From the NCBI GenBank assembly GCA_026391555.1, contig JAPLEB010000124.1:66268-130267 (forward strand): a DNA stretch of 64,000 bases, read 5' to 3'. The position numbers were made by a program, and so were the translations under genes. A model generated the notes under the pieces. The model ran no database searches, was not told the origin of the DNA, and saw nothing but the letters and a program-made list of their open reading frames with translations. The stretch comes from Bacteroidia bacterium. Its GTDB lineage: Bacteria > Bacteroidota > Bacteroidia > Bacteroidales > VadinHA17. Of the stretch, positions 10,896 through 46,600 are shown piece after piece (positions within the stretch are counted from its first letter, which is position 1; each line of letters starts with the position of its first letter).

Positions 10896-10933
10896 ATATG
10901 TTCTTAAGAATTTGCTATCTAAAGCTAACAATT

Positions 10934-14209: not shown

Positions 14210-14291
14210 AGTAAATAATCAGGAAAAATCATCAGCTAATTCAACCAATCTTTGAAATCAAGAATCGGACATTGGTTTAATATAAAGAAAA

Positions 14292-29058: not shown

Positions 29059-29112
29059 AAACACTCTATTAACTCATTCAATAAATGAATTAATAATACA
29101 ACATTTTTGAAA

Positions 29113-29682
29113 ATGATCACATTCACCAAAATCCCCTTTCAATTGACTATGTTCTTATTGATTAGTTTATTGAATACCAATTGTCATACTAATACATTAC
29201 CCTCTGCTTTAAAAATTCATTATCAGCCGGAGAGCCCCACGCAATCCTTTGGAATGGCTGAAAACCATTTCAATGCCTTAACTCTGTGGAATTTGCATCC
29301 TTTTTCGTATATGCTGCGGACAAAAAACTTTCCGGATGCCTGTCCATATTCTGACACTGAATTAAAGGTATGGCAGGATTGGATAGTAAATACCTGTTTT
29401 GATGAAATAAATAATGCAGGCCGGAAAGTAGAATTTATTATCCGTGCTCATTCTCATTCGGCTCCCGGGCTTACCCGAATGGCAGTTGAAGAAAACGCCA
29501 ACAGGCTTGGAACAGTCTATATGGATGTGAAGTTTAACTGGTCGCATGGTCATGCAACTCCCGATCTGATGTATATACATGGAGGTTCAAGATCAAAGTC
29601 ATTATGGAAACCGGCGCCAAAGAATTATAAGATGATCTTTACCATAGTGAGCTGCCGGGAGTTTATTAACTATGTTCTATGA
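29113..29682 (+). CDS. Hypothetical lipoprotein with His-rich motifs
   Basis: Start taken at ATG 29113. Possible lipobox LLNTNC; motifs AHSHSAPG and WSHGHATPD. No family recognised. Confidence 0.4.
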   Translation: MITFTKIPFQLTMFLLISLLNTNCHTNTLPSALKIHYQPESPTQSFGMAENHFNALTLWNLHPFSYMLRTKNFPDACPYSDTELKVWQDWIVNTCFDEINNAGRKVEFIIRAHSHSAPGLTRMAVEENANRLGTVYMDVKFNWSHGHATPDLMYIHGGSRSKSLWKPAPKNYKMIFTIVSCREFINYVL

Positions 29683-29755
29683 TTATTAAATTAGTAATAC
29701 TTTATGCCGAAATAATATACAAATAGTATTACTTTTATAGAATATTTTAATCATT

Positions 29756-30925
29756 ATGAAAGAAAGAATTTTATACCTGGACTTGGTTAAGCACCTCGTA
29801 AATAAGCAGGTAACTGTTATTTCAGGAATGCGAAGAGTAGGTAAAACCACAGCTTTAAAATATTTATTGGAACATATAGATTCTGATAATAAAATATATC
29901 TGGACCTTGAAAAAATTGAAAACCGTTTCATTTTTAACCAGCCGACAACTAAAGACGTTCAAATATCTTTGCAAATTGAAGGTATTGATTTTGAACGTAA
30001 AGCATTTATTGCAATTGACGAAATTCAACTTGTTCCTACTATTACAAGCACAATTAAATATTTGTATGATAATTATGATATTAAATTTCTGGTTAGCGGA
30101 TCCAGTTCTTTTTATTTAAAGAATCACTTTACAGAAAGTCTTGCCGGGAGAAAAACCATTTTTGAAATGTTCCCTTTAACATTCAATGAATTTTTAAATT
30201 TTAAGAATGTTGAAGTGTCCTCTTATCCGAGAGAAAAATTTGATGAATTCAATATGACTTTTTACAACAAATATAAAAATCTGTATATCGAGTATCTTAC
30301 TTTTGGTGGTTTCCCTGAAGTAGTTACCTGTTCAAATGAAAAAGATAAACTCAACTACCTGAAAGATATAATCAATTCATACATTGAACTTGATGTTAAA
30401 CTTTTATCCGATTTTTCGCAGTCAGATAACTTATATAAATTAATTCGTTTATTGAGTTCAAGGGCTGGCAACAAAGTGGAATATAATAAGCTGAGTGCAA
30501 TTTTAGGTCTCAACCGACAAAAAGTAAAAGATTATATTTCTCTTCTGAAATATACTTATTTTATCAAATTAATTCCACCCTATTCTAACAATCCGGATAG
30601 AGAAATTGCGATGCAAAAGAAACTCTATTTTGCAGATAATGGCTTACTTAGGGCACTTTCCAATAACAATACCGGTGCTCTACTTGAAAATTCCATTGCG
30701 AACCAGTTATCAAATCATGGCGAGGTTCAATATTATGCCCGAAAAACAGGTCAGGAAATTGATTTCATACTGAATAAAAATATTGCAATTGAAGTGAAAG
30801 AAACTCCGGTTGACTCTGACTTTAATACACTTGAGCGTCGGGCAAAAAGTATTGGGTTAAAAAATTATTTTTTAGTCGGACTGCATCCTGCAACAAAAAA
30901 ATTTGTATGGGCAGGGAGTATTTAA
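29756..30925 (+). CDS. AAA+ ATPase with DUF4143-type C-terminal domain (second, distant paralog)
   Basis: Walker A GMRRVGKT, Walker B FIAIDEIQ, and a C-terminal YFADNG...EIDFIL pattern as in 1011-2135. The gene is noticeably more AT-rich than its neighbours. Confidence 0.8.
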   Translation: MKERILYLDLVKHLVNKQVTVISGMRRVGKTTALKYLLEHIDSDNKIYLDLEKIENRFIFNQPTTKDVQISLQIEGIDFERKAFIAIDEIQLVPTITSTIKYLYDNYDIKFLVSGSSSFYLKNHFTESLAGRKTIFEMFPLTFNEFLNFKNVEVSSYPREKFDEFNMTFYNKYKNLYIEYLTFGGFPEVVTCSNEKDKLNYLKDIINSYIELDVKLLSDFSQSDNLYKLIRLLSSRAGNKVEYNKLSAILGLNRQKVKDYISLLKYTYFIKLIPPYSNNPDREIAMQKKLYFADNGLLRALSNNNTGALLENSIANQLSNHGEVQYYARKTGQEIDFILNKNIAIEVKETPVDSDFNTLERRAKSIGLKNYFLVGLHPATKKFVWAGSI

Positions 30926-31052: not shown

Positions 31053-32663
31053 ATGAATAAATTAATAACCTCACTCGGTATTGCAGCTCAGGTCGGACTA
31101 ACCATTGGTCCACTTGCAGCCCAGGATAAAAAGATGAATATTCTGTTTATTGCAGTCGATGATCTGAAACCCATTCTAGGCTGTTATGGCGATAAGCTCG
31201 TAAAAACTCCTAACATCGACAGGTTGGCGAAAAGAGGCACGATCTTCATGCAGAATTACTGCCAGCAGGCTGTCTCCGGACCAACCCGTGCAAGCCTGAT
31301 GACAGGTATGCGTCCCGATCATACCGGAGTATGGGATCTGAAAACACTTATGCGCGATGTAAATCCGGGCATCCTTAGCCTGCCTCAATTTTTTGTCAGT
31401 CAGGGTTATTCAACCCAGGGAATTGGTAAAGTTTATGATCCACGGTGTGTCGATAAAGACCTGGATGGTCCTTCGTGGAGTGTTCCATATTACAGAAATT
31501 CAGATAAGTATATTTCCAAAATAACAGGTAAGCCGGAAGGTAATTATCAGCTTTCTGAAACAAAAGAGCTCTTCAGAAAATACAGGGCAGAGGGGCAGGC
31601 TAAAGGGTTAAAAGGAACTGAACTGACTGATTATATAGCAAAATTAATAAAACCCTCAGTTGAATGTGCCGATGTTCCTGACAATGCATATAATGACGGT
31701 GCAAATGCATTGAATGCCAAAGAAATACTGACACAGTTATCAAAAGAGAATAAGCCATTCTTCTTTGCTGTTGGATTCTCCAAACCTCACCTGCCTTTTG
31801 TTGCTCCAAAAAAATACTGGGATATGTATAAACGCGATGAAATGCCTCTGCCTCCATTTCAGCAACAGGCAAAGAATAGTCCGGGCCTTGCTTATCATAA
31901 TGCTGCTGAATTATATGCATATTCAGATATTCCGCCGATTTCTTCTTTCTCTGATCAGAAAGTCGGGCTGGATATGCCGGTAGAAAAACAGAAAGAGCTG
32001 ATTCACGGATATTATGCCGCAACATCATACACCGATGCCCAGGTTGGAATCCTTTTAAATACTCTTGATTCACTTGGACTTACAGAAAATACAATTATTG
32101 TACTTTGGGGCGACCATGGCTGGCATCTCGGTGACCATAACCTGTGGTGCAAACATACCAATTTCGAACAGGCAACAAAAGCGCCGCTTCTTATTTCAGC
32201 GCCATGGATAAAACCATCAAAAACCAATTCACCTTCTGAGTTTATCGATATTTTCCCAACACTTTGTGATCTGGCGGGTGTAAATGTTCCTGCACATCTT
32301 GATGGGAAAAGCCTGGTTCCTGTTATGAAAGATCCGGAAAAATCAGTAAAAGAGTTTTCAGTCAGCCAGTATCCAAGGACAAGTAATGTTCTTGATTCAG
32401 AAAGGCTGGGTTGGTCTGATGGTCAATATATGGGTTATTCTATCAGAACTGCCAGGTATCGTTATACATTATGGATGAAAAATAGTTTCAGAAGCACAAG
32501 TCCTTTTAATAAAGAGCTTATTGAAGCCGGTGAATTGTATGATTATAACAAAGATCCCAATGAAACAATCAATGTTGCCGGAGAAAAGGAATACTCGAAG
32601 GTTCTGATGGATATGAATGAAAAAATATTAAGGTTTCTTGAAACCCAGGTTAAAAAGAATTAG
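31053..32663 (+). CDS. S1 sulfatase, iduronate-2-sulfatase-like, Ser-type (paralog of 20431-21960)
   Basis: The N-terminus MNKLITSLGI is identical to the 20431 protein. The motif is CQQAVSGPTRASLMTGMRPD, followed by WGDHGWHLGDHN. Confidence 0.9.
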   Translation: MNKLITSLGIAAQVGLTIGPLAAQDKKMNILFIAVDDLKPILGCYGDKLVKTPNIDRLAKRGTIFMQNYCQQAVSGPTRASLMTGMRPDHTGVWDLKTLMRDVNPGILSLPQFFVSQGYSTQGIGKVYDPRCVDKDLDGPSWSVPYYRNSDKYISKITGKPEGNYQLSETKELFRKYRAEGQAKGLKGTELTDYIAKLIKPSVECADVPDNAYNDGANALNAKEILTQLSKENKPFFFAVGFSKPHLPFVAPKKYWDMYKRDEMPLPPFQQQAKNSPGLAYHNAAELYAYSDIPPISSFSDQKVGLDMPVEKQKELIHGYYAATSYTDAQVGILLNTLDSLGLTENTIIVLWGDHGWHLGDHNLWCKHTNFEQATKAPLLISAPWIKPSKTNSPSEFIDIFPTLCDLAGVNVPAHLDGKSLVPVMKDPEKSVKEFSVSQYPRTSNVLDSERLGWSDGQYMGYSIRTARYRYTLWMKNSFRSTSPFNKELIEAGELYDYNKDPNETINVAGEKEYSKVLMDMNEKILRFLETQVKKN

Positions 32664-32698: not shown

Positions 32699-33808
32699 AT
32701 GATAAATTATATACGTGCAGCTAAGATTCTTTTATTGACAATATTTTTTGTTTCAGGTTCATCATTCTCATATTCACAGGTGATACTTGAGGCCGACGGA
32801 CCTGGTAATACCTATGAGTTAATTAATAGTGTTCTGGCTCCCGGATATGATGTAGTCGAAAATCCGGAATGTATTCATCCTGAATTTGGAAGGCATATTG
32901 CTGAAGTATGGGATGCTGACCTGAATCAATATGTATTTGAATTCTATATACATGTCACACCTGACAACGACAGGTGCATTATGTTCGACAGACAACGGAT
33001 GGAGATAAAAACATACGATAAGTCACCTGAAAATCTGAAAGGAGTAACAGGTGAAACGGTAGTCTATAAATGGAAATTCAGGCTTCCGGCCGGTTTTCAG
33101 CCTTCATCCAGCTTTACGCATATTCACCAGATAAAGGCAGTGGGTGGCAATGACAGCGACCCGATTTTCACCTTAACTCCAAGAAAAGGAACAACTAATA
33201 AACTGGAACTTATTCATAATAACCTCACTAAACCTGTAATTGTAGATCTCGCCCCGTTTCTCGGAACCTGGGTTGAGGCAACGGAAAGAATTAAAATCGA
33301 CAGCCTCCATGGTACATATTCAATTGTCATTAATAGGGTAAGCGACGGTATAACTTTGCTATCATATAGTAATAATAACTTAATGACTATCAGATCCGAT
33401 AATGTTTTCATCAGACCAAAATGGGGAATTTACCGTAGCTTAAATAACCCTTCAGACCTTCGCGATGAAGCAGTTCGCTTTGCGGGATTTTTCATTTCAG
33501 AAGAGACCCTTACTGCTGATATATTGATTCCTGACCAGGAAAAGATTCTTGTCAGTTTGTTTCCAAATCCATCATCAGGGAAAGTCTTTATTGAATACAG
33601 CATTAAGGGAAAGGCAGATGTAAACATAGAACTGCTAAATCTGAAAGGGGAAAAGATAAAAACACTTTTAACACACGAAATTCCTCAGCCGGGTAAAAAT
33701 CAGAAAACCTTTGATATTTCTGATATAAAAACCGGGTTATATTTTGTTCGATTCAATTCCGGAAAATTCACCAGAACAATTAAACTATGTGTTGAAAATA
33801 AGAAATAG
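32699..33808 (+). CDS. Jelly-roll protein resembling heparin-lyase-I/glucuronan-lyase-type polysaccharide lyases, with T9SS sorting domain
   Basis: Has a signal peptide. The pattern DRQRMEIKTY...GETVVYKWKFRLP...SSSFTHIHQIKAVGG...PIFTLT recalls the PF14099-type lyase fold. The C-terminus is LFPNPSSGKVFIEY...GLYFVRFNSGKFTRTIKL. The family call is tentative. Confidence 0.5.
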   Translation: MINYIRAAKILLLTIFFVSGSSFSYSQVILEADGPGNTYELINSVLAPGYDVVENPECIHPEFGRHIAEVWDADLNQYVFEFYIHVTPDNDRCIMFDRQRMEIKTYDKSPENLKGVTGETVVYKWKFRLPAGFQPSSSFTHIHQIKAVGGNDSDPIFTLTPRKGTTNKLELIHNNLTKPVIVDLAPFLGTWVEATERIKIDSLHGTYSIVINRVSDGITLLSYSNNNLMTIRSDNVFIRPKWGIYRSLNNPSDLRDEAVRFAGFFISEETLTADILIPDQEKILVSLFPNPSSGKVFIEYSIKGKADVNIELLNLKGEKIKTLLTHEIPQPGKNQKTFDISDIKTGLYFVRFNSGKFTRTIKLCVENKK

Positions 33809-33866: not shown

Positions 33867-35216
33867 ATGAAAATTTTTGAAAACATCTTTAGAAATGGCT
33901 CTGTAAAATCAATAGGTATGATGACCTTACCAGTTATCGGAGCCTTGATGAACCCTTCAAGTGCTGAAGCACAGCAAGGTCAGAAAAGGAAACCCAATAT
34001 TATTTTCATCCTTGCCGATGATTTAGGTATTGGTGATGTTGGTTGTTATGGTGCCGACAATTACAAGACACCCAATATCGACAGACTGGCAAGCCAGGGA
34101 ATCCGTTTTACAAATGCTTATACAGCGCCATTATCCGGCCCATCCCGTGCGACTATTCTTACGGGACGCCATCTGTTCCGCACCGGAGCCACCAACCAGG
34201 ATGCGTGCGGACTATTAAAACCTTCGGTGGAAACAATGATGCCAACTTACCTGAAACAGGCAGGTTATGTAACTACAGCCATAGGAAAATGGGGGCAACT
34301 TTCTCTTGAACCATCCGATTGGGGATTTGATGATTATCTGAAATTTCAGGGCAGTGGAGTTTATTGGAATACCCAGGAAAAGGGCAAAACTTACACTGTT
34401 AACGGAGTCATGACGGAATTGAAAGATAAAGAATACTTGCCCGATGTAATGCACAAGCGCCTGGTTGAATTTATGACTCAAAACAAGAATAAACCATTTT
34501 ACGCGTATTATTCTTTGTCACACGTTCATGGCGAAATTCTGCCAACGCCCGACAGTAAGGCTGACAGTAAAAACCTGTATAACGACAATATTTCCTATAT
34601 GGACAAGCTTGTTGGTCAATTAGTTTCTGAGCTTGAGAGATTAAAACTGAGTGATAATACAATACTCGTTTTCTTTGGCGATAATGGAACCGCTGCAGGC
34701 AAAGCTGACGCTGCAACAATTGGTGGACGAAGACTTATCGGTCAGAAGGGTTCGATGCTCGAAGGCGGAAGTCTTGAACCTCTGATTGTCTATTGGCCGG
34801 GTGTTACTCCCAAAGGCAAAGTTTCAAATGATTTGATCAGTGCAACCGATTTTGTCCCGACATTTGCAGAAATTGCCGGAGCTCAGCTTACTAAAGATAA
34901 AATTCTTGATGGCCAGAGCTTTAATGCTCAGCTTCATGACGAAAAAGGAAATCCACGATCATCGATTTTTGTTCAGCTTGCCAACAACTGGTATGTAAGG
35001 AGTTCGGAATATAAATTGAATCAATCCGGAGAATTATTTGATATGAGCAAAGCGCCTTTCGAAGAAATTTCTGTTCCTGCTGAAACTAAAAACCCAAATG
35101 CTATCGCTGCCCGCAAAAGTCTGCAGACTGAACTCGACAGGCTGAATCCTGCAGGAGGTTTTAAGGATACTGGCGATGGGAGTGGTCGTCATGCCAATAA
35201 GATTAAGAAAAAATAA
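33867..35216 (+). CDS. S1 sulfatase, Ser-type active site
   Basis: NIIFILADDLGIGD, the motif PLSGPSRATILTGRH, and FFGDNG. A signal-like segment lies near the N-terminus, so the true start may be an internal Met. Confidence 0.88.
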   Translation: MKIFENIFRNGSVKSIGMMTLPVIGALMNPSSAEAQQGQKRKPNIIFILADDLGIGDVGCYGADNYKTPNIDRLASQGIRFTNAYTAPLSGPSRATILTGRHLFRTGATNQDACGLLKPSVETMMPTYLKQAGYVTTAIGKWGQLSLEPSDWGFDDYLKFQGSGVYWNTQEKGKTYTVNGVMTELKDKEYLPDVMHKRLVEFMTQNKNKPFYAYYSLSHVHGEILPTPDSKADSKNLYNDNISYMDKLVGQLVSELERLKLSDNTILVFFGDNGTAAGKADAATIGGRRLIGQKGSMLEGGSLEPLIVYWPGVTPKGKVSNDLISATDFVPTFAEIAGAQLTKDKILDGQSFNAQLHDEKGNPRSSIFVQLANNWYVRSSEYKLNQSGELFDMSKAPFEEISVPAETKNPNAIAARKSLQTELDRLNPAGGFKDTGDGSGRHANKIKKK

Positions 35217-35220
35217 AAAC

Positions 35221-36618
35221 ATGAAAAATAATCAAACCAGAAGAAATTTCATAAAGCAATCAGCAATCACTACTGTTGGTCTTGCTGCCGGTTTAAAGGC
35301 TATTAGCGTATCGCAAAATGGAAGGATATCAGGTGCCAATGACAGAATACGGGTGGGTTTTATCGGAACCGGGAACAGAGGTTCACAGCTTTTAGAACTG
35401 TTCATGCAAAACAAAGACGTTGAGATCGCAGCACTGTGCGATGTTTACGAGCCTTATTTATTGCGTGACCGTAGCAAGGTTGACCCCCGCTATTTAGCTG
35501 ACAGAGCAGGGCAAATACCCCAGATGGGTGAAAAATTTCCTGCAAAACCTGCTCTCTACAACGATTATCGAAAGCTGTTGGAAGACAAGAGTATTGATGC
35601 GGTGTGTATTGCTTCACCAGACCACTGGCATGCCATTCAAATGATTGAGGCTGTCAAAGCAGGTAAGGATGTTTATGTTGAAAAACCATTAACCCAGACT
35701 ATAAAGGAAGGCAGGACAATGGTTAATGTATGGAAGGCCAGTAACCGTGTTGTCGCGGTTGGTCTCAACCGCAGGGGAAATGAAGTTTATCAGAAGCTTG
35801 CCAAAGAGATTCCTGCAGGGAAAATTGGTCAGGTAACAGTTGCCCGTGCTGCCCGTGTCAGTAATATGTTTCCCAACGGCATCGGAAAACTGAAAGCTGA
35901 ACAACCACCTAAAGATTTTAACTGGGATATGTGGCTTGGTCCAAGGGGTTACCGTCCTTATCAATATAATATTGCACCTTACATGTTCCGATGGTGGGGC
36001 GATTATTCCAGCCAGATGGGAAATTGGGGCGTTCATTACATGGATGCCATCCGCTGGATGATGGGAGAAGTTGCTCCGGTGGCTATTACTGCACATGGCG
36101 GAAAATATGTCCTGGACCATGACGGCGACATAGCTGACACTATGCATGTAACTTTCGAATTTGCATCAAAGAAAATAATCTCATTTAGCATTTTTGAAGC
36201 AAGCAGCGGAGACATTCTGCCTTTTGGTGAAATTGAGCTCCGCGGAACAAAGGGAAACCTTTATGCCAGTCAGGATGGCTATCGAGTAATACCGGCAAAA
36301 AAAGGCCAGTTCCAAAATTGGAATCAAATGATTGAAGGTGAGGAGTTTAATATTCCGACCCAGGATTTGAAAGATGGAAGCAATGCTTTTGCGACTGCTA
36401 ACCTCATACGTAACTTTCTCGATTGTATAAAGACAAGGGAAATACCGTTGTGTCCTTTGGAGGAAGGCCATCGTTCAACAAGTTTTGCCCATCTTGCCAA
36501 TATTGCACTTGCAACCCATGAACGCCTTCAGTGGGATCCGGGAAATGAAGTATTCACAAATTCCAATGAAGCCAATAAGCTTTTACATTACGAGTACCGT
36601 AAACCCTGGAAGTTATAA
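35221..36618 (+). CDS. Gfo/Idh/MocA-family oxidoreductase with twin-arginine signal
   Basis: Start taken at ATG 35221 (MKNNQTRRNFIKQSAITTVGLAAG). Rossmann motif VGFIGTGNRG and EKP motif VYVEKPL. It begins 4 nt after the sulfatase stop. Confidence 0.85.
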   Translation: MKNNQTRRNFIKQSAITTVGLAAGLKAISVSQNGRISGANDRIRVGFIGTGNRGSQLLELFMQNKDVEIAALCDVYEPYLLRDRSKVDPRYLADRAGQIPQMGEKFPAKPALYNDYRKLLEDKSIDAVCIASPDHWHAIQMIEAVKAGKDVYVEKPLTQTIKEGRTMVNVWKASNRVVAVGLNRRGNEVYQKLAKEIPAGKIGQVTVARAARVSNMFPNGIGKLKAEQPPKDFNWDMWLGPRGYRPYQYNIAPYMFRWWGDYSSQMGNWGVHYMDAIRWMMGEVAPVAITAHGGKYVLDHDGDIADTMHVTFEFASKKIISFSIFEASSGDILPFGEIELRGTKGNLYASQDGYRVIPAKKGQFQNWNQMIEGEEFNIPTQDLKDGSNAFATANLIRNFLDCIKTREIPLCPLEEGHRSTSFAHLANIALATHERLQWDPGNEVFTNSNEANKLLHYEYRKPWKL

Positions 36619-36641
36619 GCAGTGAAAATTATTCTGAGAAT

Positions 36642-37598
36642 ATGCAACGACGTAATTTTATCAAAACAACCGGCCTTTCGGTTGCCGGAATAAGTCTGGC
36701 AGGACCGGGATTAGCAAAATCTATTATGGCTGACAGAACATATAAAAGGCCCGTATGTGCTTTCACCAAATGCCTTCAGTTCCTGACCTTGGACCAGATG
36801 GGTGAAGTGATGGGCAGACTCGGCTTTGATGGTGCTGATGTGCCGGTAAGACCGGATGGACATATTGAACCGAAAAATGTAAAAGCTGACCTGCCTCAGG
36901 CAGTGAAAATTCTTAGTAAATACGGAGTTGAAATGCCTATGATAGTGACCGCTATCACCGATCCTTCTGAACCGTTTGCCCTTGATACTCTTCAGGCCGC
37001 CTCCGATTCAGGAATAAAGTATTACCGTACAGGAACTTATAAATACGATCTTTCCAGGTCCATTCAGCAAAACCTCGACGAACACAAAAAAACGATTGAA
37101 AAATTGGCTGCTCTGAACGAAAAATTGGGCATTCACGGGGGGTACCAGAACCACTCTGGAATGAATATAGGATCACCTGTTTGGGATTTATTTGAACTTA
37201 TGAAAGATGTTGATCCGCGTTATATGGGTATTCAGTATGATATCCGGCACGCAGTTACTGAAGCGGGCTATTCATGGAAACTGGGAATGAAGCGAATAGC
37301 TCCATGGATCAGAACAATCGACATTAAGGATTTTGTCTGGGGGAAGAATCCCAACGGTGAATGGCGTCATCAAAATGTGCCGCTGGGCGAAGGAATGGTC
37401 AATTTCGACGAATTCCTGAAAGAATATGCCAGTCTGAAAATTGAAGCTCCCATCAGCATCCATTACGAATATGATCTGGGTGGTGCCGAAAGTGGAAAAA
37501 AAGAAACGATCATGGATCATGAAAAAATTTATGGCCTGATGAAAAAAGACCTCGACTGGTTCCGTAAAAATCTGTTAAAAAATCAAATCGAAGCTTAA
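36642..37598 (+). CDS. Xylose-isomerase-like TIM-barrel (sugar phosphate isomerase/epimerase family) with twin-arginine signal
   Basis: N-terminus MQRRNFIKTTGLSVAGISLAG. The body has the AP-endonuclease-2/xylose-isomerase-like TIM pattern (GFDGADV, GGYQNHSG, QYDIRH, IHYEYD). Confidence 0.8.
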   Translation: MQRRNFIKTTGLSVAGISLAGPGLAKSIMADRTYKRPVCAFTKCLQFLTLDQMGEVMGRLGFDGADVPVRPDGHIEPKNVKADLPQAVKILSKYGVEMPMIVTAITDPSEPFALDTLQAASDSGIKYYRTGTYKYDLSRSIQQNLDEHKKTIEKLAALNEKLGIHGGYQNHSGMNIGSPVWDLFELMKDVDPRYMGIQYDIRHAVTEAGYSWKLGMKRIAPWIRTIDIKDFVWGKNPNGEWRHQNVPLGEGMVNFDEFLKEYASLKIEAPISIHYEYDLGGAESGKKETIMDHEKIYGLMKKDLDWFRKNLLKNQIEA

Positions 37599-38999
37599 AT
37601 GAAAAATCCGGTAACAAGAAGAGAATTCCTTAGAACTACTGGAGTTGCAGGTGTTGCAACATTGGCCGGAGCTCACCTGATAGGCTCTTCGGCTGTAAAC
37701 GAAACAAAAAAAAAAATTACAATTACCGAAGTCAGTTCCAATTTTGAAAGAGAGCCGCTTATCAGGCCTTTTGGATTTAAAGGAGGGTACATGACTGAAA
37801 TCTGGCAAACGGTAAATTATCTTAAAAGCAGTTCAGGAGAACATAAGATTGGCCTTTGCACTCAGAATGTGCTTTGGTCAGATGCTCAGGTTTTTGCTGC
37901 CCACTCAGAAAGTGGTGGTAATGCCGTGATGTTTGCACTTACAGAGAGAGCTCTCCAGATTGTCAAAGGGCAAAGTTTTGGTACACCAGTTGAATTGCTT
38001 GACAATATATTGCCTGAAGTATATGAATTTGGTAAAAAAATTACTTCAAGAGCTGATCTCAGAAAGACATTCGCGTTAAATGCACTTGTCGGAATCGATA
38101 ATGCTGCATGGTTACTATATGCTAAAGAAAACGGGTTAAGCACTTTCGATGAAATGATACCACCGGAATACAAACCGGCACTTTCGAACCATCACGATAA
38201 GGTTGCTGCAATTCCATTAATGGCCTACAATATTCCAATCGATGAAATAGAAGCAGCCGTTAATCAGGGATACTTCTTTATGAAAATAAAAATTGGTCAG
38301 CCTGGAACACAGGAAGAGATGCTGGAAAAAGACAAAGCTCGTCTCTCAGCAATCCACCAGGCAATCGGCAATATACGAACCCCTCACACCAAAGACGGCA
38401 GATTACCTTACTATTTCGATGCCAATGGCAGGTATGAGAAAAAAGAATCACTTTTAAAACTTCTTGATCACGCCAGGAAGATTGGAGCATTTGAACAGAT
38501 AGCAATAATCGAAGAACCATTTGCGGAAGAACCGGAGATCGACGTTTCAGATATCCCTGTAAGGCTGGCTGCCGACGAAAGTGCTCATACTGATGCAGAT
38601 GCAATTAAACGGATACAAATGGGATACAAAGCCATCGCTCTGAAAGCGATAGCCAAGACATTAAGCATGACCATGAAAATTGCACAGGCTGCCTACGAAC
38701 GGAATATTCCATGTTTTTGTGCCGATCTGACAGTAAATCCGGTATTGGTTGAATGGAACAAAAATGTAGCTGCCCGCCTGAAATCACTTCCCGGTATGGG
38801 GAGTCTTGGACTGATGGAAAGCAACGGACATCAAAACTATAAGAACTGGAGTACCATGATGAGTTATCATCCACGCGGTGATGCGCCATGGGTAAAAGTA
38901 ATAAATGGTGTTTATGAACTGAATAGTGAATTCTATCGGACAGGCGGCGGAATATTTGATAAAATGCCGCATTACGAGGAAATGTTTTCATATAAATAA
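37599..38999 (+). CDS. Enolase-superfamily (mandelate racemase/muconate-lactonizing-enzyme-like) protein with twin-arginine signal
   Basis: N-terminus MKNPVTRREFLRTTGVAGVATLAGA. Candidate catalytic and metal residues are in MKIKIG, YFDANG, IIEEPF, AADES and ALKAIAK. The ATG directly abuts the previous TAA. Confidence 0.7.
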   Translation: MKNPVTRREFLRTTGVAGVATLAGAHLIGSSAVNETKKKITITEVSSNFEREPLIRPFGFKGGYMTEIWQTVNYLKSSSGEHKIGLCTQNVLWSDAQVFAAHSESGGNAVMFALTERALQIVKGQSFGTPVELLDNILPEVYEFGKKITSRADLRKTFALNALVGIDNAAWLLYAKENGLSTFDEMIPPEYKPALSNHHDKVAAIPLMAYNIPIDEIEAAVNQGYFFMKIKIGQPGTQEEMLEKDKARLSAIHQAIGNIRTPHTKDGRLPYYFDANGRYEKKESLLKLLDHARKIGAFEQIAIIEEPFAEEPEIDVSDIPVRLAADESAHTDADAIKRIQMGYKAIALKAIAKTLSMTMKIAQAAYERNIPCFCADLTVNPVLVEWNKNVAARLKSLPGMGSLGLMESNGHQNYKNWSTMMSYHPRGDAPWVKVINGVYELNSEFYRTGGGIFDKMPHYEEMFSYK

Positions 39000-39040: not shown

Positions 39041-40765
39041 ATGAAGAATCTCATTGGATACAAAAGTTTTAACATGGCATTGCTTGGTTTGGTATCTGCT
39101 CCTGTCTTTTCGCAGAATAGCCAACCAATTCAAAAAATGCCCAACATCATCGTCATTCTATGTGATGATATGGGCTATTCCGATATCGGGTGTTTCGGAT
39201 CAGAGATAAAAACACCGAATATAGATCGCCTGGCAGCAAATGGATTGCGCTTTACTCAATTCTATAATACTGCACGCTGCAGCCCGTCGCGTGCTTCCCT
39301 GCTTACTGGTTTGTACCCGCATCAGGCCGGTATGGGCCATCTTTCCACAGAGAATTATAAAGAGCCAGGTTATGTTGATGATCTGAGCAAGAATGCTGTT
39401 ACTATGGCTGAAGTTTTTAAACAGGCCGGCTATGCAACCTATATGACCGGGAAATGGCATATTGCCAGAGAAATGACTGGTACAGGAGATAAAAGTAACT
39501 GGCCTCTCCAGCGTGGATTTCAAAGATACTTCGGTACACTAAACGGTTCAGGTAGTTATTACGATCCCGGTACTCTGATTAGCAACAATACTTTTATTGC
39601 ACCCGGGAAAGATTTTTATTATACCAATGCCATCAGCGATACCACAGTGAAATTTATCCGGGAGCATCCAAATGGGAAGCCATTCTTCTTTTATGTAGCC
39701 TATACTGCAGCACACTGGCCACTGCATGCTCCGGGAAAAGAGATAGCAAAATATAAAGGGATTTATGATAAAGGATGGGATACCATTCGTGAACAACGTT
39801 TTATTAAGCTCAGGAAGCTTGGCATTATTGATGAAAATTGTATACTGACAGAGAGAGGAGCTGAGATCCCGGCATGGAAGGATGAACCGATGAAAGAATG
39901 GCAGGTGAGGAGAATGGAGGTATATGCTGCCATGATCGATGTGATGGACCAGGGGATAGGAAGGATTATTTCTGCACTCGAACAAAAAGGAGAATTGGAA
40001 AACACTCTCATTTTTTACATGCAAGATAACGGAGGTTGCGCTGAACCACAAGGTTCCGATAAACTGACTGTCCCATTGACTGATGAGCAGAAAATTATGA
40101 GGCCCTTTTCTTATGAGGCCATTTCCATTGAGAAAAGACCGGTCTATGCACGTGATGGCCGGTTTGTAAGAAGTGGCAGAGGCGTAATGTCGGGTGATGC
40201 TGATACATGGACTGCATATGGTGTAGAATGGGCAAATGTTAGCAACACTCCATTCAGGCTGTACAAACACTGGACTCACGAAGGAGGAATCGCATCGCCG
40301 CTAATTGTGCAATGGCCAAAAGGCATAACAATGAAAGGAGAACTTCGAAAACAACCCTCCCACTTAATTGATATTATGGCAACCTGTATTGATATTGCAG
40401 GTATTGATTATCCAAAACAGTTCAACGGAAATACAATCCAGCCTTACGAAGGAAAAAGCCTGGTTTCCGCTTTCAATAATAAAGAAATTAAAAGGGATTT
40501 TATTTTCTGGGAACATGAAGGAAACCGGGCTATTCGCAAAGACAATTGGAAACTGGTCTCAAGAACTGAAAAAATCAAAAAATTCACAGAAACTGATCAG
40601 AAAATGTGGGAGTTATATGATCTGGACAAAGACCCGTCGGAAACGGTCAACCTGGCTTCAAAATATCCTGAAAAGGTTAAAGAACTATCAGAAAAATGGG
40701 AAAAAGAAGCACTACGGACAAGAGCTAAACCCTGGCCTTGGCAGGTTATTAACGAGGGAAAGTAA
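39041..40765 (+). CDS. S1 arylsulfatase, Cys-type active site
   Basis: Signal peptide, NIIVILCDDMGYSD, the motif ARCSPSRASLLTGLYPHQ, and GKWH. Confidence 0.9.
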   Translation: MKNLIGYKSFNMALLGLVSAPVFSQNSQPIQKMPNIIVILCDDMGYSDIGCFGSEIKTPNIDRLAANGLRFTQFYNTARCSPSRASLLTGLYPHQAGMGHLSTENYKEPGYVDDLSKNAVTMAEVFKQAGYATYMTGKWHIAREMTGTGDKSNWPLQRGFQRYFGTLNGSGSYYDPGTLISNNTFIAPGKDFYYTNAISDTTVKFIREHPNGKPFFFYVAYTAAHWPLHAPGKEIAKYKGIYDKGWDTIREQRFIKLRKLGIIDENCILTERGAEIPAWKDEPMKEWQVRRMEVYAAMIDVMDQGIGRIISALEQKGELENTLIFYMQDNGGCAEPQGSDKLTVPLTDEQKIMRPFSYEAISIEKRPVYARDGRFVRSGRGVMSGDADTWTAYGVEWANVSNTPFRLYKHWTHEGGIASPLIVQWPKGITMKGELRKQPSHLIDIMATCIDIAGIDYPKQFNGNTIQPYEGKSLVSAFNNKEIKRDFIFWEHEGNRAIRKDNWKLVSRTEKIKKFTETDQKMWELYDLDKDPSETVNLASKYPEKVKELSEKWEKEALRTRAKPWPWQVINEGK

Positions 40766-40818: not shown

Positions 40819-43296
40819 ATGAAAAATAGAATACTAATCAGCATTGTTTTAATAGCGCTGGGGATATCAAATTCCCTGAATGGCCAGCAGGAAAATAAAA
40901 TAAGGCTTAATGATAACTGGAAATTTCTTAAAGGTGACCTGGGAGGGGTATGGGAAGCTGTAAGGCCGGTAGAAGCCGGTAATCCTGAGGGTTTTCCGAT
41001 CTGGGAAAATGTTACCCTTCCTCATTGCTTCAACGCGACTGATGCAGTTGATCCTGATGTTAACTATTACCAGGGACCGGGATGGTACACAACCCGGATT
41101 GATGTCAAAAATCCATACACAAATGGCAGGACTATTCTCCACTTTGAGGGTGCCGGACAAAAGACAGAAGTCTATGTTTACACAACAAAAGTCGGGTCTC
41201 ATGTAGGTGGGTATAATGAATGGAGTGTTGATATTACTGACGCCGTAAATGATTTTGTTCAGAATAAGACGATTGCCGCAACATTCAAAGGTAAGGTTCC
41301 TGTCTCAATCAGATGCGACAATTCAAGAGATCTGGAGATGATACCTTCCGATATGTCGGATTTTAACCTTTATGGCGGAATTTACAGGTATTTAAACCTG
41401 GTTTATGTGCCCTCATTTTCGATCGAACGTCTGTTTGTAAATGCAAATGTTGATTCAAAAGGTTTGGAAGGGAAATTCGATTTGAGTATCAGATTGCGGA
41501 ACAAATCAGACTCCCCGAAGGCTCATCTCAAAATTGAAGTTACCGATCCTAAAGGCAAGCTGATAAGCTCTGAAGAACAGGATATTGATTCGTTTGAAGG
41601 TGAAAATGTTATTTACAAAAATGTTATAAAAAAGCCAGAGTTATGGTCACCTTCCCGACCCAATTTATACACAGGAAATGTTACCATTTCAAGCGAATCC
41701 GGCACCCGGTCAGTCATAGAAAAGTTTGGTTTCCGGAATTTTGAATTTGTCGATTATGGCCCTTTTAAGCTCAATGGTGCCAGGTTACTTCTCCGTGGAA
41801 CACATCGTCACGAAGATCATGCGGGAGTCGCTGCTGCAATGACTGAGGATATGATCAGAACTGAAATGATAATGATTAAGGAAATGGGGGTCAACTTTAT
41901 CAGATTAGGTCATTATCAGCAATCGCGGATTGTACTTGAATTATGCGATAGTCTTGGAATTCTGGTATGGGAAGAAATTCCCTGGTGCCGTGGCGGACTG
42001 GGTGGTGAACGGTACAAGGAACAGGCCCGGAATATGCTCACTGACATGATTGAGCAGCATCGTAACCATCCTTCAGTTATCATCTGGGGTCTGGGAAATG
42101 AGAATGACTGGCCTGGCGACTTTCCTGAATTTGATAAGGGAAAAATCCGCGCATTTATGTCCGAGCTGAATATTCTGTCTCATAAACTTGATCTAACACG
42201 TATGACAGCCATCCGCAGATGTGATTTTTGCAAAGATATCCCCGATGTTTATTCCCCTTCGATCTGGGCCGGCTGGTACCGTGGAATATATACAGAATAC
42301 CGCGCAGCAACAGAGACTGAGATAAAGGGAGTTAAACATTTTCTTCATGCTGAATGGGGTGGTGATAGCCATGCTATGAGACATTCAGAAACACCCGACA
42401 AAGTTCTTCAGCAAATTAAAACAGGAGATGGCGCAGATGAAAGGTTTGGTGATGCCTCACTTTTTGGAGGTGCAGCACGTGTTTCCAAAGATGGTGACTG
42501 GAGCGAGTCGTACATCTGCAACCTTATTGACTGGCACCTTAAAGAGCAGGAAAATATGCCGCTTTTAACCGGTTCAGCATACTGGCCTTTCAAGGATTTT
42601 TCTACACCTATACGACCTGAAAATCCGGTACCTTATGTGAATCAGAAAGGGGTGGTTGAGCGCGATCTTACAAAAAAGGAGGCATATTATGTATTTCAGT
42701 CATGGTGGACAGATAAGCCTATGGTTCATATCTATGGACATAGCTGGCCGGTAAGATGGGGTGATGCAGGTGAAGAAAAAATGGTAAAAGTTTATTCCAA
42801 TTGCGATGAAGCTGAATTGTTTGTAAACGGGGTAAGCTATGGTGTAAAAATGCGGAATGGACAGAATTTTCCGGCAGCCGGGTTGAGGTGGAATGTTCAA
42901 TTTAAAAATGGAGAAAACAAGGTCAGTGCTGTGGCTAATAAAGGGAAAGAGAGAGTGACAGATGAGATCTCATTTATCTATCAGACTGAAAAATGGGAAA
43001 AACCAGCGAGACTGATTCTTGAAAAAACTGACCAAAAGGCCGATACAATTACAATACAGGTTAAAATAGTCGATGACAAAGGGATCTTATGTCTCGATGC
43101 ACGTAATTACATAGAGTTTCTGCTTTCAGGTGACGGGAAACTAATTTATAACCAGGGCACTTCAAGCGGATCAAGAAAAGTACAGGCATACAACGGAAGG
43201 GCTATTATCAGGATGAAAACAAACAATGGGAAAAACATAGCCGGCGTGAAATCAGAATGGTTGAAGACAGTTTTTCTTGAAATCAATCAGGAATGA
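40819..43296 (+). CDS. Glycoside hydrolase family 2
   Basis: Has a signal peptide and the N-terminal sugar-binding pattern LNDNWKF. The TIM barrel has NHPSVIIWGLGNE (acid/base region) and HAEWGGDS (nucleophile region). Confidence 0.85.
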   Translation: MKNRILISIVLIALGISNSLNGQQENKIRLNDNWKFLKGDLGGVWEAVRPVEAGNPEGFPIWENVTLPHCFNATDAVDPDVNYYQGPGWYTTRIDVKNPYTNGRTILHFEGAGQKTEVYVYTTKVGSHVGGYNEWSVDITDAVNDFVQNKTIAATFKGKVPVSIRCDNSRDLEMIPSDMSDFNLYGGIYRYLNLVYVPSFSIERLFVNANVDSKGLEGKFDLSIRLRNKSDSPKAHLKIEVTDPKGKLISSEEQDIDSFEGENVIYKNVIKKPELWSPSRPNLYTGNVTISSESGTRSVIEKFGFRNFEFVDYGPFKLNGARLLLRGTHRHEDHAGVAAAMTEDMIRTEMIMIKEMGVNFIRLGHYQQSRIVLELCDSLGILVWEEIPWCRGGLGGERYKEQARNMLTDMIEQHRNHPSVIIWGLGNENDWPGDFPEFDKGKIRAFMSELNILSHKLDLTRMTAIRRCDFCKDIPDVYSPSIWAGWYRGIYTEYRAATETEIKGVKHFLHAEWGGDSHAMRHSETPDKVLQQIKTGDGADERFGDASLFGGAARVSKDGDWSESYICNLIDWHLKEQENMPLLTGSAYWPFKDFSTPIRPENPVPYVNQKGVVERDLTKKEAYYVFQSWWTDKPMVHIYGHSWPVRWGDAGEEKMVKVYSNCDEAELFVNGVSYGVKMRNGQNFPAAGLRWNVQFKNGENKVSAVANKGKERVTDEISFIYQTEKWEKPARLILEKTDQKADTITIQVKIVDDKGILCLDARNYIEFLLSGDGKLIYNQGTSSGSRKVQAYNGRAIIRMKTNNGKNIAGVKSEWLKTVFLEINQE

Positions 43297-43674: not shown

Positions 43675-46600
43675 ATGCAATCACTTAAAAGAATTCTGAT
43701 CACATGTTTTCTATTATTGGTAGTTTTAGAAAGCTATTCCCAGGAAGCCGGCAGACCTTTCATTCGGAATTTTACTCCCAAAGAATACGGTGCCAGCCAG
43801 CAGAACTGGTCGATTGCGCAGGACCAAAGGGGCATAATGTATTTTGCCAATAATGATGGATTACTTGAATTTGACGGAGTCAGCTGGAAGCTTGTGTCAC
43901 TTCCGGGATTACGAAGCGTTGTCATAGACACTATGGGAAGGATTTATGCCGGAATGGAAAATGATATGGGGTATCTGGAACCTGACAGCAGGGGCAATCT
44001 TAAGTTTTATTCACTGAAAGATAAAATCCCGGGAGGACCAGCAGATATTACTACAGTATATTCAATGCATAAAATGGGAGATCAGATCATATTTCAAACT
44101 GATGACAATATTTATCTATACCGGGATGAAAAGATGAAAATCCTTCAGTCCAAAGAGAGTTTCTTATTTGGTTATGTTGTGCATGACCGGTTTTATGCCA
44201 TGGAGATGAAAAGCGGGCTTTATTACCTGAATAATGACAGCCTTGTTTTTATTAAAGGCAGCGATTTTTTTACCGGAGAAAAGATTTCTTTTATGCTACC
44301 GTATGGGACAAATCAGGTCTTAATTGGGACCCGTAATAAGGGCTTATATATATATTCTCCCGATGGGCCTGAAGTATTTTATAAACCAGCATACTTTAAA
44401 GAAGTTGATGATTTTCTGGTCAGGAACCAGTCATACTGCGGAACGGTATTAACCGGTGGCGATTTTGCAATTGGATCAATAACAGAAGGCATAATCGTTT
44501 TTGATACGCTTGGCAGAATAAAAGATAAGTATTATAAGAATGCCGGACTTCAGGATAATACAGTTTTATCCCTCTATTCTGACCAGAGCGGGCAACTCTG
44601 GACAGCATTAGATATAGGTATCAGCCTGATACAAAACAACCTGCCATTCCGTAATTATACAGATCTGGATGGTCTGTTTGGTTCTCCATTGTGTCTTAAA
44701 TATTTCCGTGACCGGTTTTATGTCGGAACCGGTCAGTATTTACATATTCAAAACCGGAAAGGTGTCTTTGAGACGATTGAGGGCACGGAGAGTCAAAACT
44801 TTATTTTGTTTGAAGCTAATGGAATATTGCTTTTAGGATGTACTTCCGGGATTTTTGAAATCAAAGACCGTCAGGCCATTCCCCTTGAAAACACTTCTGC
44901 TCTCGCTATTCTTTCAATAGTGCCACTAAAAAACCATCCGGGATATTTTCTGGCAGGGGAAGGAAACGGATTATTTTTACTGGAATACCGGAATTCAAAG
45001 TGGAAATTAAACCACCGGATAAAGGGTTTTGAAAAAGCGGCATATGATATTTGTGTTGATGAAAATGAAAATATCTGGGTATCAACAACCATTGAATTAT
45101 TGAGGTTAAAAATCAATGCTGAGTCAGATAGTGTAATATTGATGCAAAAAGGTGCAGATATCAAAGGGTTCCCGTCAAATTATGGCTGGCCTTTTGCCCT
45201 GAATTCGGGAGAGGTGGTTTTTGGCAGCGGGAAAGGAATTTATCGTTATATAGATCAAAAGGAGTTGTTTGAACCACATCCTGATTTTAATATGATAAAA
45301 GGAAAGGTACTGCCATTCAGTCAGGTAAAAAACGGGGATATCTGGTTTGATGAAGAAATGGAGACAGGGCACCATGAAAGAGGTGTTTTGATGTACAGAA
45401 ACGGGAAATATCTTATGTATAAAACACCTTTTTATAAATTCACTGATCTTGAATCCGGGGAAAGTCCACATAATGTTTGTCAGGCTCCGGACAGTACCAT
45501 TTTCTATGGTACCTCTTCAGGCCTGATTCAGTACAATCCAAAACTTAAATTTAATACTGCCAGTAGTTTTCAGACACTAATAAGGAAGGTTTACTGCAAA
45601 GATTCCCTTCTGTTTGGAGGCGGGCAAAAATTGAATTCGGATTTTGCAAAAAATAATAATTACGAAATTGCATATAAACAAAATGATATGACCTTTCATT
45701 TTGCTGCAGCATATTATGAAGATTCTGAGAAAAATCTTTACAGTTACCGTCTTGTTGGAGCAGATACCAGCTGGTCAGAATGGGTAAGGGACAATAAGAA
45801 GGAATATACCAATCTGCCTGAAGGCAAATATAGATTTGAAGTTAAATCAAAGAACCAGTACCAGATGGTTGGAGTCACAGCTTCCTATTCCTTCCATATC
45901 AAGCCGCCATGGTACAGGGAATGGTGGGCTTACGGATTGTATGTAATTTTATTAGTCACTCTTATCTGGATTATAGTTAAATATAACATCCGGCGGCTTG
46001 TAAAACAAAAAGATCAGTTGCAGAAAATTGTAGAAGAACGTACCGCCGAGGTACTTGAACAGAAAATAGAGATAGAAGCGGCTTATGGACAAATTACTGA
46101 CAGCATTCAATATGCACAAATAATTCAGCAGGCAGTATTACCTGCAAGCGATATAATTCAACAATCATTTCCGGAGCACTTTGTGCTTTTCAAACCTCGC
46201 AATGTTGTTAGTGGGGATTTCTACTGGTATGCAAAAGTTGAAAATCAAATTGTCATTACCGTTGCAGACTGTACGGGTCATGGCGTACCTGGTGCATTTA
46301 TGAGTATGCTGGGAATGTCACTTTTGAAGGAAATAGTATTAAAGGAATATATGACTCAACCAGATATTATACTAAGGAGGTTAAGAAAAGAAATAATCAG
46401 ATCGCTGGGTCAAAGCGGTAAGTTTGGAGAGGCAAAAGACGGAATGGACATTTCATTATGTTCCATAAACTTAGAAACAATGGAGATGAAGTGGTCCGGT
46501 GCATACAATCCATGCTGGATAATAAAAGAAGGAAAATTAATAAAACTGGAACCAGATAAAATGCCTATTGGAATTTCCTTCAGGATGGAAAAATTTACTT

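Follow-up and report, generated by a model that had tools for sequence, protein, structure and literature searches.

The window analysed here is a stretch of 64,000 nucleotides from contig JAPLEB010000124.1 of a Bacteroidia bacterium (Bacteroidales, VadinHA17). It holds a polysaccharide utilisation locus (PUL) in which three adjacent genes encode a Gfo/Idh/MocA oxidoreductase (GFO), a xylose-isomerase-like TIM barrel (XITIM) and an enolase-superfamily protein (ENOL), each opening with a motif of the twin-arginine translocation (Tat) pathway. The trio probably represents a known oxidation-elimination module with an extra, uncharacterised and probably periplasmic enolase-superfamily component. 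The first description of this route of glycan cleavage dates from 2024 and comprised three enzyme types; the locus and its relatives show a fourth, tightly linked component. The best overall explanation, put forward tentatively, is a periplasmic Tat module that performs a variant of oxidation-elimination ('3-keto') glycoside cleavage in which ENOL would act on a uronic acid.

The published route (Nasseri et al., bioRxiv 10.1101/2024.03.25.586180) begins with oxidation at C3 of the non-reducing sugar by a Gfo/Idh/MocA enzyme that is exported through Tat and holds NAD tightly. Elimination of the aglycone and hydration of the glycal then fall to a 'sugar phosphate isomerase' TIM barrel (Co2+) and a DUF1080 protein, and the oxidoreductase finally reduces the 3-keto sugar in a cycle that is redox-neutral. 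An enolase-superfamily protein is absent both from this system and from the glucuronide-specific P2B11 cluster (10.1101/2024.03.25.586180).

Gene order and export signals of the trio

The three genes are tightly packed and co-directional. The TAA of the upstream sulfatase gene (35214-35216) is followed by a 4-nt spacer ('aaac') and then by the GFO ATG at 35221. A longer alternative open reading frame (ORF) for GFO, from 35176, runs into the sulfatase; the start at 35221 yields 465 aa, a length that matches the orthologues. A 23-nt gap separates the GFO stop codon (TAA, 36616-36618) from the XITIM ATG at 36642, and the XITIM stop codon (TAA, 37596-37598) directly abuts the ENOL ATG at 37599.

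The same arrangement recurs well beyond the window. Two sets of related loci were compared, 80 genome loci seeded with ENOL (through a closer alignment, A2) and 80 metagenome loci seeded with GFO. ORF clustering of the ENOL-seeded loci places ENOL in 76, a single GFO cluster in 55 and a single XITIM cluster in 52, by far the commonest neighbours, and the order GFO-XITIM-ENOL on one strand is kept in nearly all loci. Where at least 3.5 kb of upstream sequence is available (n = 57), GFO is present in 49 loci, XITIM in 41 and either XITIM or a DUF1080 protein in 50; GFO and ENOL stand alone in five. The adjacent orthologous GFO is 58-86% identical to that of the window, to which the remaining GFO paralogues of these loci show just 22-30% identity. 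The association is reciprocal: of the 55 metagenome loci seeded with GFO that extend 1.5 kb or more downstream, 48 contain ENOL and 41 XITIM. Carriers include several Bacteroidota orders, Pirellulales, Verrucomicrobiota, Kiritimatiellia, Lentisphaeraceae, Calditrichaceae and Rhodothermaceae. The module occurs in at least 573 species genomes, and clustering at 90% identity divides the ENOL family into more than 6,000 protein clusters. The module, with its two-way synteny, and the family assignments are very probably real. Whatever its substrate, the module is abundant, conserved across phyla, uncharacterised and testable in cultured carriers, among them Mariniphaga anaerophila DSM 26910 and Hyunsoonleella species.

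All three proteins begin with candidate Tat signals. The N-termini are MKNNQTRRNFIK for GFO, MQRRNFIK for XITIM and MKNPVTRREFLR for ENOL, with twin-arginine motifs TRRNFIK, QRRNFIK and TRREFLR, respectively; the Tat consensus is S/T-R-R-x-F-L-K ahead of a hydrophobic stretch. The NCBIfam Tat-signal model TIGR01409 (cut-off 16.7) matches GFO at 20.9 and ENOL at 18.1, with no match reported for XITIM in the NCBIfam scan, and ENOL also matches Pfam TAT_signal. In AlphaFold2 (AF2) models, residues 1-33 of ENOL are disordered and residues 1-31 of XITIM have a pLDDT below 50. An RR-x-hydrophobic motif is kept in 74 of 82 ENOL orthologues (read from in-frame N-terminal extensions), all 50 GFO orthologues and 48 of 52 XITIM orthologues; most of the ENOL orthologues that lack it are cut at contig ends or belong to Opitutales/Pirellulales. 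This conservation, together with the unstructured first ~31-33 residues, indicates that the motifs lie at genuine N-termini and did not arise by chance. Judged from these signals, the trio is probably exported folded into the periplasm through the Tat pathway.

Both the gene layout and the placing of the motifs at real N-termini had been claimed in an earlier note on this DNA, and both are borne out. That note also proposed that the proteins are cofactor-loaded and hence Tat-exported, which stands in part. Export for the sake of cofactor loading is documented only for the GFO type, a tight NAD holder; for XITIM and ENOL, metal loading or oligomer assembly before export would be a plausible reason. 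Zymomonas glucose-fructose oxidoreductase (GFOR; 1ofg/1h6a), a Gfo/Idh/MocA enzyme that matches GFO at ~1e-10, is Tat-exported with its nicotinamide cofactor bound. Unlike GFO, it oxidises C1 of free glucose and stands outside any multi-enzyme glycan module. ENOL homologues that lack a signal also exist, adjoining GFO/XITIM or lactonase-like genes, and the predicted periplasmic location is therefore a trait of this ENOL clade and not of the whole family.

Three variants among the related loci (designated by L numbers) deserve description. A signal-less ENOL homologue, P0121 (55% identical), lies in an ABC-transporter operon of L086 (7358-11528) with the order CN_hydrolase-ENOL-GFO-GFO-XITIM, continuing with Glucosamine_iso, Amidohydro_1, URO-D and 2-Hacid_dh; ENOL, GFO and XITIM are therefore also associated in a cytoplasmic setting. 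In L044, which represents a single lineage of Bacteroidales, XITIM and ENOL are separated by an inserted aldo/keto reductase with a fused 4Fe-4S dicluster domain (6713-7954 and 9550-10890 noted), and a purple-acid-phosphatase-like protein follows ENOL. Finally, L011, L012, L016, L018, L019, L022, L033 and L037 share, immediately upstream of GFO, a set made up of a TonB-dependent receptor, a DUF4249 protein and a 728-aa MG2-like protein, which may serve the module as an uptake system of its own, distinct from the SusC/D type.

Folds, active sites and nearest relatives

ENOL matches Pfam MR_MLE_C at 4.4e-11, with Pfam MR_MLE_N undetected in it, and a single-sequence phmmer search of the PDB finds no relative. 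A profile from alignment A1 (24 family members at 30-55% identity, also used for conservation) matches PDB structures of the muconate-lactonising enzyme (MLE) subgroup: the dipeptide epimerase 2zad at 1.7e-13, 4gfi, the MLE 3i4k and the L-Ala-D/L-Glu epimerase (AEE) 1jpd. These alignments bring KIKxG, DxN, EEP, ADES and the strand-6 Lys into register. Against 2zad, D274, E305 and D326 of ENOL match the DxN, ExP and ADE ligands, and its lysines match KIKVG and the strand-6 K. The AF2 model (pLDDT 91.9, pTM 0.89) has the two-domain fold of the superfamily, with an N-terminal alpha+beta capping domain and a C-terminal (beta/alpha)7-beta barrel. Foldseek returns 409 PDB matches at E <= 0.001. The top 50 all belong to the enolase superfamily, with target-normalised TM values of 0.59-0.76; most lie at 0.65-0.76 and the best at 0.70-0.76, with 15-18% identity. 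The matches include OSBS/NSAR-like proteins, dipeptide epimerases, AEE, MLE, 3,6-anhydrogalactonate cycloisomerase and talarate dehydratase.

The predicted barrel places the candidate catalytic residues where the superfamily keeps them. Its strands end at K229/K231, D274, E305, D326, K349, D376 and E407. The KxK pair K229/K231 lies within strand 228-231 (strand 2), the putative metal ligands D274, E305 and D326 follow predicted strands 271-274, 301-305 and 323-325 (strands 3, 4 and 5), and K349 follows strand 345-348 (strand 6), while strand 8 bears an ESNG motif. Conservation in A1 is high for these residues (K229, D274 and E305 24/24; D326 23/24; K349 22/24; K231 21/24) and for a further set (K353, D376, E407, D245 and N276 24/24; N409 23/24; R278 and Y279 22/24; K61 21/24).

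ENOL answers to no named MLE-subgroup function among the NCBIfam models for DgcA racemase (27 bits, cut-off 400) and MenC (25 bits, cut-off 200), and every other NCBIfam functional model likewise scores it far under its cut-off. Among 1.84 billion proteins, only 564 representative clusters match it at E <= 1e-3, and the database names given to the family are generic ('L-alanine-DL-glutamate epimerase-like', 'enolase C-terminal domain-like'). By its profile and predicted structure, ENOL is an MLE-subgroup-like family of the enolase superfamily that is remote from every characterised one. It shares with the MLE subgroup (2zad, 1jpm, 3jva, 1wue) the two-domain fold, the strand-2 KxK, the D/E/D ligands of strands 3-5 and the strand-6 Lys. 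It is set apart by an identity of just 15-18%, a mature length of ~430 aa (~350-390 aa in the matched PDB chains), the Tat signal, the further set of conserved residues given above and a steady synteny with sugar oxidoreductases. To our knowledge, every characterised enolase-superfamily member abstracts a proton alpha to a carboxylate, and all of them are cytoplasmic enzymes with small carboxylic acids as substrates. No report of a Tat-exported or PUL-linked enolase-superfamily enzyme was found in the literature. The superfamily does occur in marine polysaccharide loci as the 3,6-anhydro-L-galactonate cycloisomerase (5xd7-5xd9) and DauB of red-algal galactan catabolism, which combine alpha-proton abstraction with beta-elimination of a ring oxygen and match ENOL at 1e-17 in Foldseek. 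Unlike ENOL, these enzymes are cytoplasmic and take free sugar acids as substrates, downstream of an aldehyde dehydrogenase step, and their similarity to ENOL in sequence is negligible (profile E-value ~0.8). L-fuconate dehydratase, a candidate prompted by GH29 and FucU neighbours, was set aside for ENOL because the residues are of MLE type and FucD-like Foldseek matches are absent.

GFO carries Pfam GFO_IDH_MocA with C2, C3 and C domains. Its best NCBIfam model is the BT_2158 glycoside 3-dehydrogenase family (129.7 bits, 1.1e-37, cut-off 750), and IolG comes second at 3.8e-29. The best PDB relatives are 8tdf and 8tdh, at 2e-29 in an alignment spanning residues 104-278 only, with further matches to 8tdi (2e-9) and GFOR (8e-11). 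Depositor names for 8tdf and 8tdh are generic ('Dehydrogenase', 'Predicted dehydrogenases'); 8tdi is deposited as 'P2B11 Glucuronide-3-dehydrogenase'. Because this neighbouring accession bears the P2B11 fosmid name of the Withers-lab 3-keto study, 8tdf and 8tdh are assigned to that study and would be glycoside 3-dehydrogenases of the Nasseri/Withers 3-keto pathway. GFO itself is probably an NAD-bound glycoside 3-dehydrogenase.

XITIM matches Pfam AP_endonuc_2, and its alignment has H171, D200, H203, E207, D230, H274 and E276 conserved. The TIM-barrel lyase of the 3-keto pathway (AL1/BT1) has a His/Asp/His metal site and a catalytic Glu, for which H171, D200, H203, H274 and E276 are candidate counterparts. 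Its profile finds 3tva at 4e-13, and 8tcs/8tcd, which by accession proximity would be the TIM-barrel lyases of the 3-keto pathway, only at 5e-3. The AF2 model, built with database homologues (pLDDT 83.7), gives Foldseek matches to SCO6571, BDI_1903, Art22, the AtHYD 2-hydroxy-3-keto-glucal hydratase (rank 5), ketose 3-epimerases, UlaE and DgpB-C, with 8tcs/8tcd outside the top 50. XITIM is probably a metal-dependent 3-keto-sugar lyase/hydratase (or epimerase). Three assertions of the earlier note thus hold up under profile searches and modelling. Its three family assignments agree with Pfam; the ENOL motifs that it singled out (KxK, D274, E305, D326/E327 and K349, with K353) are conserved in A1 and in register with 2zad; and its analogy with oxidative glycoside cleavage of the LgdA/B and DgpA/BC type agrees with the nearest relatives of GFO.

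A DUF1080 (3keto-disac_hyd) protein lies near the trio in 13 of the 57 related loci. It is found within 6 kb of ENOL in 9 of the 16 loci without XITIM, directly upstream of GFO in seven of them. This standing in of DUF1080 for XITIM mirrors the overlapping lyase/hydratase roles of TIM-barrel and DUF1080 proteins (10.1101/2024.03.25.586180). It is mainly because DUF1080 sits where XITIM is absent that the module is placed in the 3-keto pathway and not in a C1-oxidation pathway, and on balance it seems to belong there. A block of the form DUF1080-DUF6340-DUF1080 recurs upstream of GFO-ENOL in loci without XITIM (L002, L017, L023, L026, L030, L038, L051 and others); we know of no function for DUF6340.

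The AL1-AL3 / BT2156-BT2160 cluster (10.1101/2024.03.25.586180; Liu et al. 2021, PMC8121099) resembles the trio in setting a periplasmic Tat Gfo/Idh/MocA enzyme of ~450-470 aa beside a TIM barrel and/or a DUF1080 protein, and both lie in Bacteroidota glycan loci. The known cluster has no enolase-superfamily protein, and GFO and XITIM are distant from the characterised enzymes. All three signals of the trio are of the Tat type, whereas AL1 has a Sec signal and AL2 a lipoprotein signal. Furthermore, the window has no cytosolic second oxidoreductase and no DUF1080 protein by Pfam among the ORFs scanned. The P2B11 cluster, with its glucuronide 3-dehydrogenase 8tdi, applies oxidation-elimination to uronic-acid glycosides. 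Unlike the trio, it is Gram-positive and cytoplasmic, and it comprises two oxidoreductases and two TIM-barrel 'isomerases' with no enolase-superfamily member.

Substrate, mechanism and competing readings

The neighbourhoods of related trios probably link the module to uronic acids. L041 has the order SusC-SusD-GH88-KduI-GFO-XITIM-ENOL-SDR-ACS-type acid-sugar MFS-RbsD/FucU-SDR, where SDR and MFS denote short-chain dehydrogenase/reductase and major facilitator superfamily, and its KduI, directly upstream of GFO, is bona fide at 419 bits (cut-off 250). A gene of glycoside hydrolase family GH88 precedes the trio in L001 and L041, and also in L003, where it is recognised by clustering with the L001 gene. 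In L003-L005, ENOL is followed by a gluconate-5-dehydrogenase/KduD-like SDR, a KduI/IolB-family protein and an MFS transporter. A lyase resembling polysaccharide lyase family PL38 stands directly upstream of GFO in L010, L020, L024 and L071, L003 and L008 each have one at a distance of up to 8 kb, and esterases resembling carbohydrate esterase family CE15 occur in three related loci. The window PUL itself carries PL6 and PL38-like uronate lyases, and one cytoplasmic ENOL homologue adjoins a TctABC carboxylate transporter.

Related loci thus lend independent support to the suggestion of the earlier note that the substrate is a uronic acid. Its account of the setting fares less well. By Pfam, none of the window ORFs scanned, which are nearly all of the non-overlapping ones of at least 150 aa, is GH88 or GH105, but the idea that the trio replaces a missing GH88 is contradicted by L001, L003 and L041, where GH88 stands beside the trio. 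Nor is the trio specific to sulfatase/lyase PULs, and a link to sulfated substrates finds no support: only 13 of 82 genome loci have a sulfatase within 8 kb, and only one of the 80 GFO-seeded metagenome loci has one within 5 kb. The order of steps suggested in that note, oxidation, isomerisation and then epimerisation or dehydration of desulfated uronate oligosaccharides, is hypothetical.

Both the chemistry and the substrate of the proposed mechanism are inferred. By homology, GFO with tightly bound NAD would oxidise the 3-OH of the non-reducing-end sugar, and XITIM, or DUF1080 where XITIM is absent, would rely on a bound divalent metal for elimination of the aglycone, for hydration of the 2-hydroxy-3-keto-glycal, or for both. 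ENOL, with a divalent metal and Lys bases, would abstract the proton alpha to a carboxylate; a carboxylated sugar is its default substrate because all characterised superfamily members perform this abstraction. The carboxylate would be C6 of a uronic acid, either glycan-bound or in the released 3-keto/unsaturated product. Removal of H5 could lead to C5 epimerisation, in keeping with the reactions of the closest structural relatives of ENOL, or to 4,5-elimination, giving an unsaturated uronate that would feed GH88/KduI/KduD; the reverse hydration would be a third outcome. Acidic residues would in this way be routed to 4-deoxy-5-keto-uronate and then to KduI/KduD.

Action of ENOL on H5 of a uronic acid is a working proposal that may well prove wrong. 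If it is true for periplasmic uronic acids, ENOL would represent a new enzymatic handling of acidic sugars in marine and sediment carbon turnover and a new functional family for a textbook mechanistic superfamily. Doubtful at present is the narrower claim that ENOL is the first enolase-superfamily enzyme outside the cytoplasm to act directly on glycans, as an exo-lyase, a 4,5-dehydratase/hydratase or a C5-epimerase of glycan-bound or 3-keto-activated uronate. If that claim is true, oxidation-elimination would extend to alginate, glucuronan, glycosaminoglycan-like polymers and fucoidan side chains, by a mechanistic class unrelated to the polysaccharide lyase families and to known C5-epimerases.

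Several observations weigh against this explanation of the module and its uronic-acid substrate. The GFO score falls far below the equivalog cut-off of its best model, which makes C3 regiochemistry putative; XITIM approaches 8tcs/8tcd only marginally, and its predicted fold fits hydratases, epimerases and proteins of no assigned function equally well; and the ligand geometry of ENOL is judged solely from sequence position and predicted strand ends. Many loci that lack a recognisable uronate gene carry GH29 fucosidases (12), sulfatases (14), GH140/GH141-like proteins, GH3, GH31 and acetyl-esterases. Cytoplasmic homologues stand beside lactonase-like genes and 2-hydroxyacid dehydrogenases, a setting more typical of aldonate or aldarate dehydratase pathways. 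Finally, known chemistry does not require an ENOL step, because P2B11 cleaves glucuronides by the 3-keto route without any enolase-superfamily enzyme.

The setting of the cytoplasmic homologues would suit a different chemistry, a reducing-end oxidative 'peeling' in which GFO would oxidise C1 to a lactone or aldonate and ENOL, as an aldonate/aldarate dehydratase, would take H2 and expel the 3-substituent (OH, sulfate or glycan). The signal-less homologues occur with GFO, lactonase-type genes (Amidohydro_2 twice in L083; Glucosamine_iso/6PGL-family in L086 and L090) and a 2-hydroxyacid dehydrogenase, the layout of a classic oxidative sugar-acid pathway. Tat-exported GFOR is among the PDB matches of GFO, and those of ENOL in Foldseek include talarate dehydratase and anhydrogalactonate cycloisomerase. 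Peeling is unlikely all the same. GFO is nearest to 8tdf/8tdh and the BT_2158 3-dehydrogenase family and not to 1-dehydrogenases, 3-keto-glycoside lyases/hydratases of the DUF1080 type replace or accompany XITIM, and no lactonase lies within the periplasmic module. With C1 oxidation, moreover, bound NADH would have no evident partner for its re-oxidation in the periplasm, a need that does not arise in the redox-neutral 3-keto cycle, and the residues of ENOL are of MLE type and not the His-Asp or Tyr-Arg dyads that, to our general knowledge, belong to acid-sugar dehydratases.

The substrate could also be a free small molecule (a cyclitol, an ascorbate-like compound or free hexuronate), handled by a periplasmic IolG/IolE-type dehydrogenase and TIM-barrel dehydratase, with ENOL converting the resulting keto-acid. 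The rank of IolG among the GFO models, the presence of IolE and UlaE among the XITIM matches and the better score of the L005 downstream KduI/IolB-family gene against IolB are in keeping with this, and the 65-85% identity of ENOL and GFO across phyla would suit one small invariant substrate. This reading is nevertheless quite unlikely: the IolG/IolE scores are all far under their cut-offs, no IolD, IolC or IolJ genes were seen in the neighbourhoods, and these are dominated by SusC/SusD, TonB-dependent receptors, glycoside hydrolases, polysaccharide lyases, esterases and sulfatases.

The loci in which ENOL partners GFO without XITIM or DUF1080, together with the many that lack a uronate-related gene, raise the possibility that ENOL acts on a non-carboxylate 3-keto intermediate. 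As a third interchangeable lyase/hydratase, it would hydrate or tautomerise the 2-hydroxy-3-keto-glycal, with vicinal oxygens chelating the metal. It is very unlikely that it does so, given the established reliance of the superfamily on carboxylates, the conservation of the full KxK/D/E/D/K set in ENOL and the presence of XITIM or DUF1080 in 50 of 57 loci, where the hydratase role is usually already taken. Least probable is that ENOL epimerises an amino-acid or peptide moiety (an N-acyl amino acid, a dipeptide or a uronoyl-amino-acid conjugate): its top profile and Foldseek matches are dipeptide epimerases, AEE and NSAR, CN_hydrolase genes occur both beside the L086 homologue and close to the L002 trio, and NagA/NagB-like genes occur in L086 and L090, but its identity to those enzymes is low, its ESNG would occupy the place in strand 8 where dipeptide epimerases carry a DxD ammonium-binding motif, and the synteny is with sugar enzymes, with no conserved peptidase nearby.

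The surrounding polysaccharide utilisation locus

The PUL of the window has an adjacent SusC/SusD pair, co-directional carbohydrate-active enzymes and a regulator; its features are listed in Table 1 with those of the trio. The best PDB matches of the first PL6-type lyase are PL6 alginate/poly-M lyases, at 1e-91. An orthologue of the GH2 glycosidase also lies near the trio in L001, L003, L008 and L010.

Table 1. Positions of the trio, its predicted signal peptides and the main PUL genes in the window
Feature	Position	Strand	Description or basis
GFO gene	35221-36618	+	465 aa, Gfo/Idh/MocA oxidoreductase
Predicted Tat signal peptide of GFO, MKNNQTRRNFIKQSAITTVGLAAGLKAISVS	35221-35313, end approximate	+	TIGR01409 and RR motif
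XITIM gene	36642-37598	+	318 aa, xylose-isomerase-like TIM barrel
Predicted Tat signal peptide of XITIM, MQRRNFIKTTGLSVAGISLAGPGLAKSI	36642-36725, end approximate	+	RR motif
ENOL gene	37599-38999	+	466 aa, enolase-superfamily protein
Predicted Tat signal peptide of ENOL, MKNPVTRREFLRTTGVAGVATLAGAHLIGSSAVN	37599-37700, end approximate	+	TIGR01409 and RR motif
Hybrid two-component system (HTCS) regulator of the PUL	5198-9280	-	Reg_prop, Y_Y_Y, HisKA, HATPase_c, Response_reg, HTH_18
SusC/SusD pair defining the PUL	10898-15836	+	SusC at 10898: Plug and CarboxypepD_reg; SusD at 14292: SusD_RagB and SusD-like_3
Two PL6-type lyases, the second with a type IX secretion system (T9SS) tail	17170-20363	+	Chondroitinas_B Pfam
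Sulfatase just upstream of GFO	33867-35216	+	Sulfatase Pfam
Other sulfatases	20431-21960, 25038-26477, 31053-32663, 39041-40765		Sulfatase Pfam
GH2 glycosidase, downstream of the trio and last gene of the PUL	40819-43296	+	Glyco_hydro_2 domains

The sulfatases of the PUL number five complete genes and one truncated fragment. A 210-aa ORF between the HTCS gene and SusC (9636-10268, +) shows similarity to SGSH_C and to no more than the C-terminal portion of the Sulfatase profile, and it looks like a truncated sulfatase or a pseudogene. Four PUL proteins carry a T9SS C-terminal sorting domain (18612-20363, 22753-24930, 26493-28271 and 32699-33808), one of them PL6-like and one Polysacc_lyase-like. 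Because of these tails, part of the degradation is probably extracellular, by way of type IX secretion.

In the middle of the PUL, two small ORFs without a Pfam match precede an AAA_14/DUF4143 ATPase (28381-30925, +), and a second AAA_14/DUF4143 gene lies at the start of the window (1011-2135, -). The block inside the PUL may be an insertion. Directly downstream of the PUL, the gene at 43675-46851 (+) encodes a periplasmic sensor of the HTCS type (Reg_prop, Y_Y_Y) joined to a SpoIIE/PP2C phosphatase domain that takes the place of the kinase, receiver and AraC modules, and a second SpoIIE-domain protein follows at 47258-48817 (+). Further along, the gene at 56557-57735 (+) encodes an Alginate_lyase-Pfam protein whose nearest solved relatives are 3nfv and 8bdq (PL38-type).

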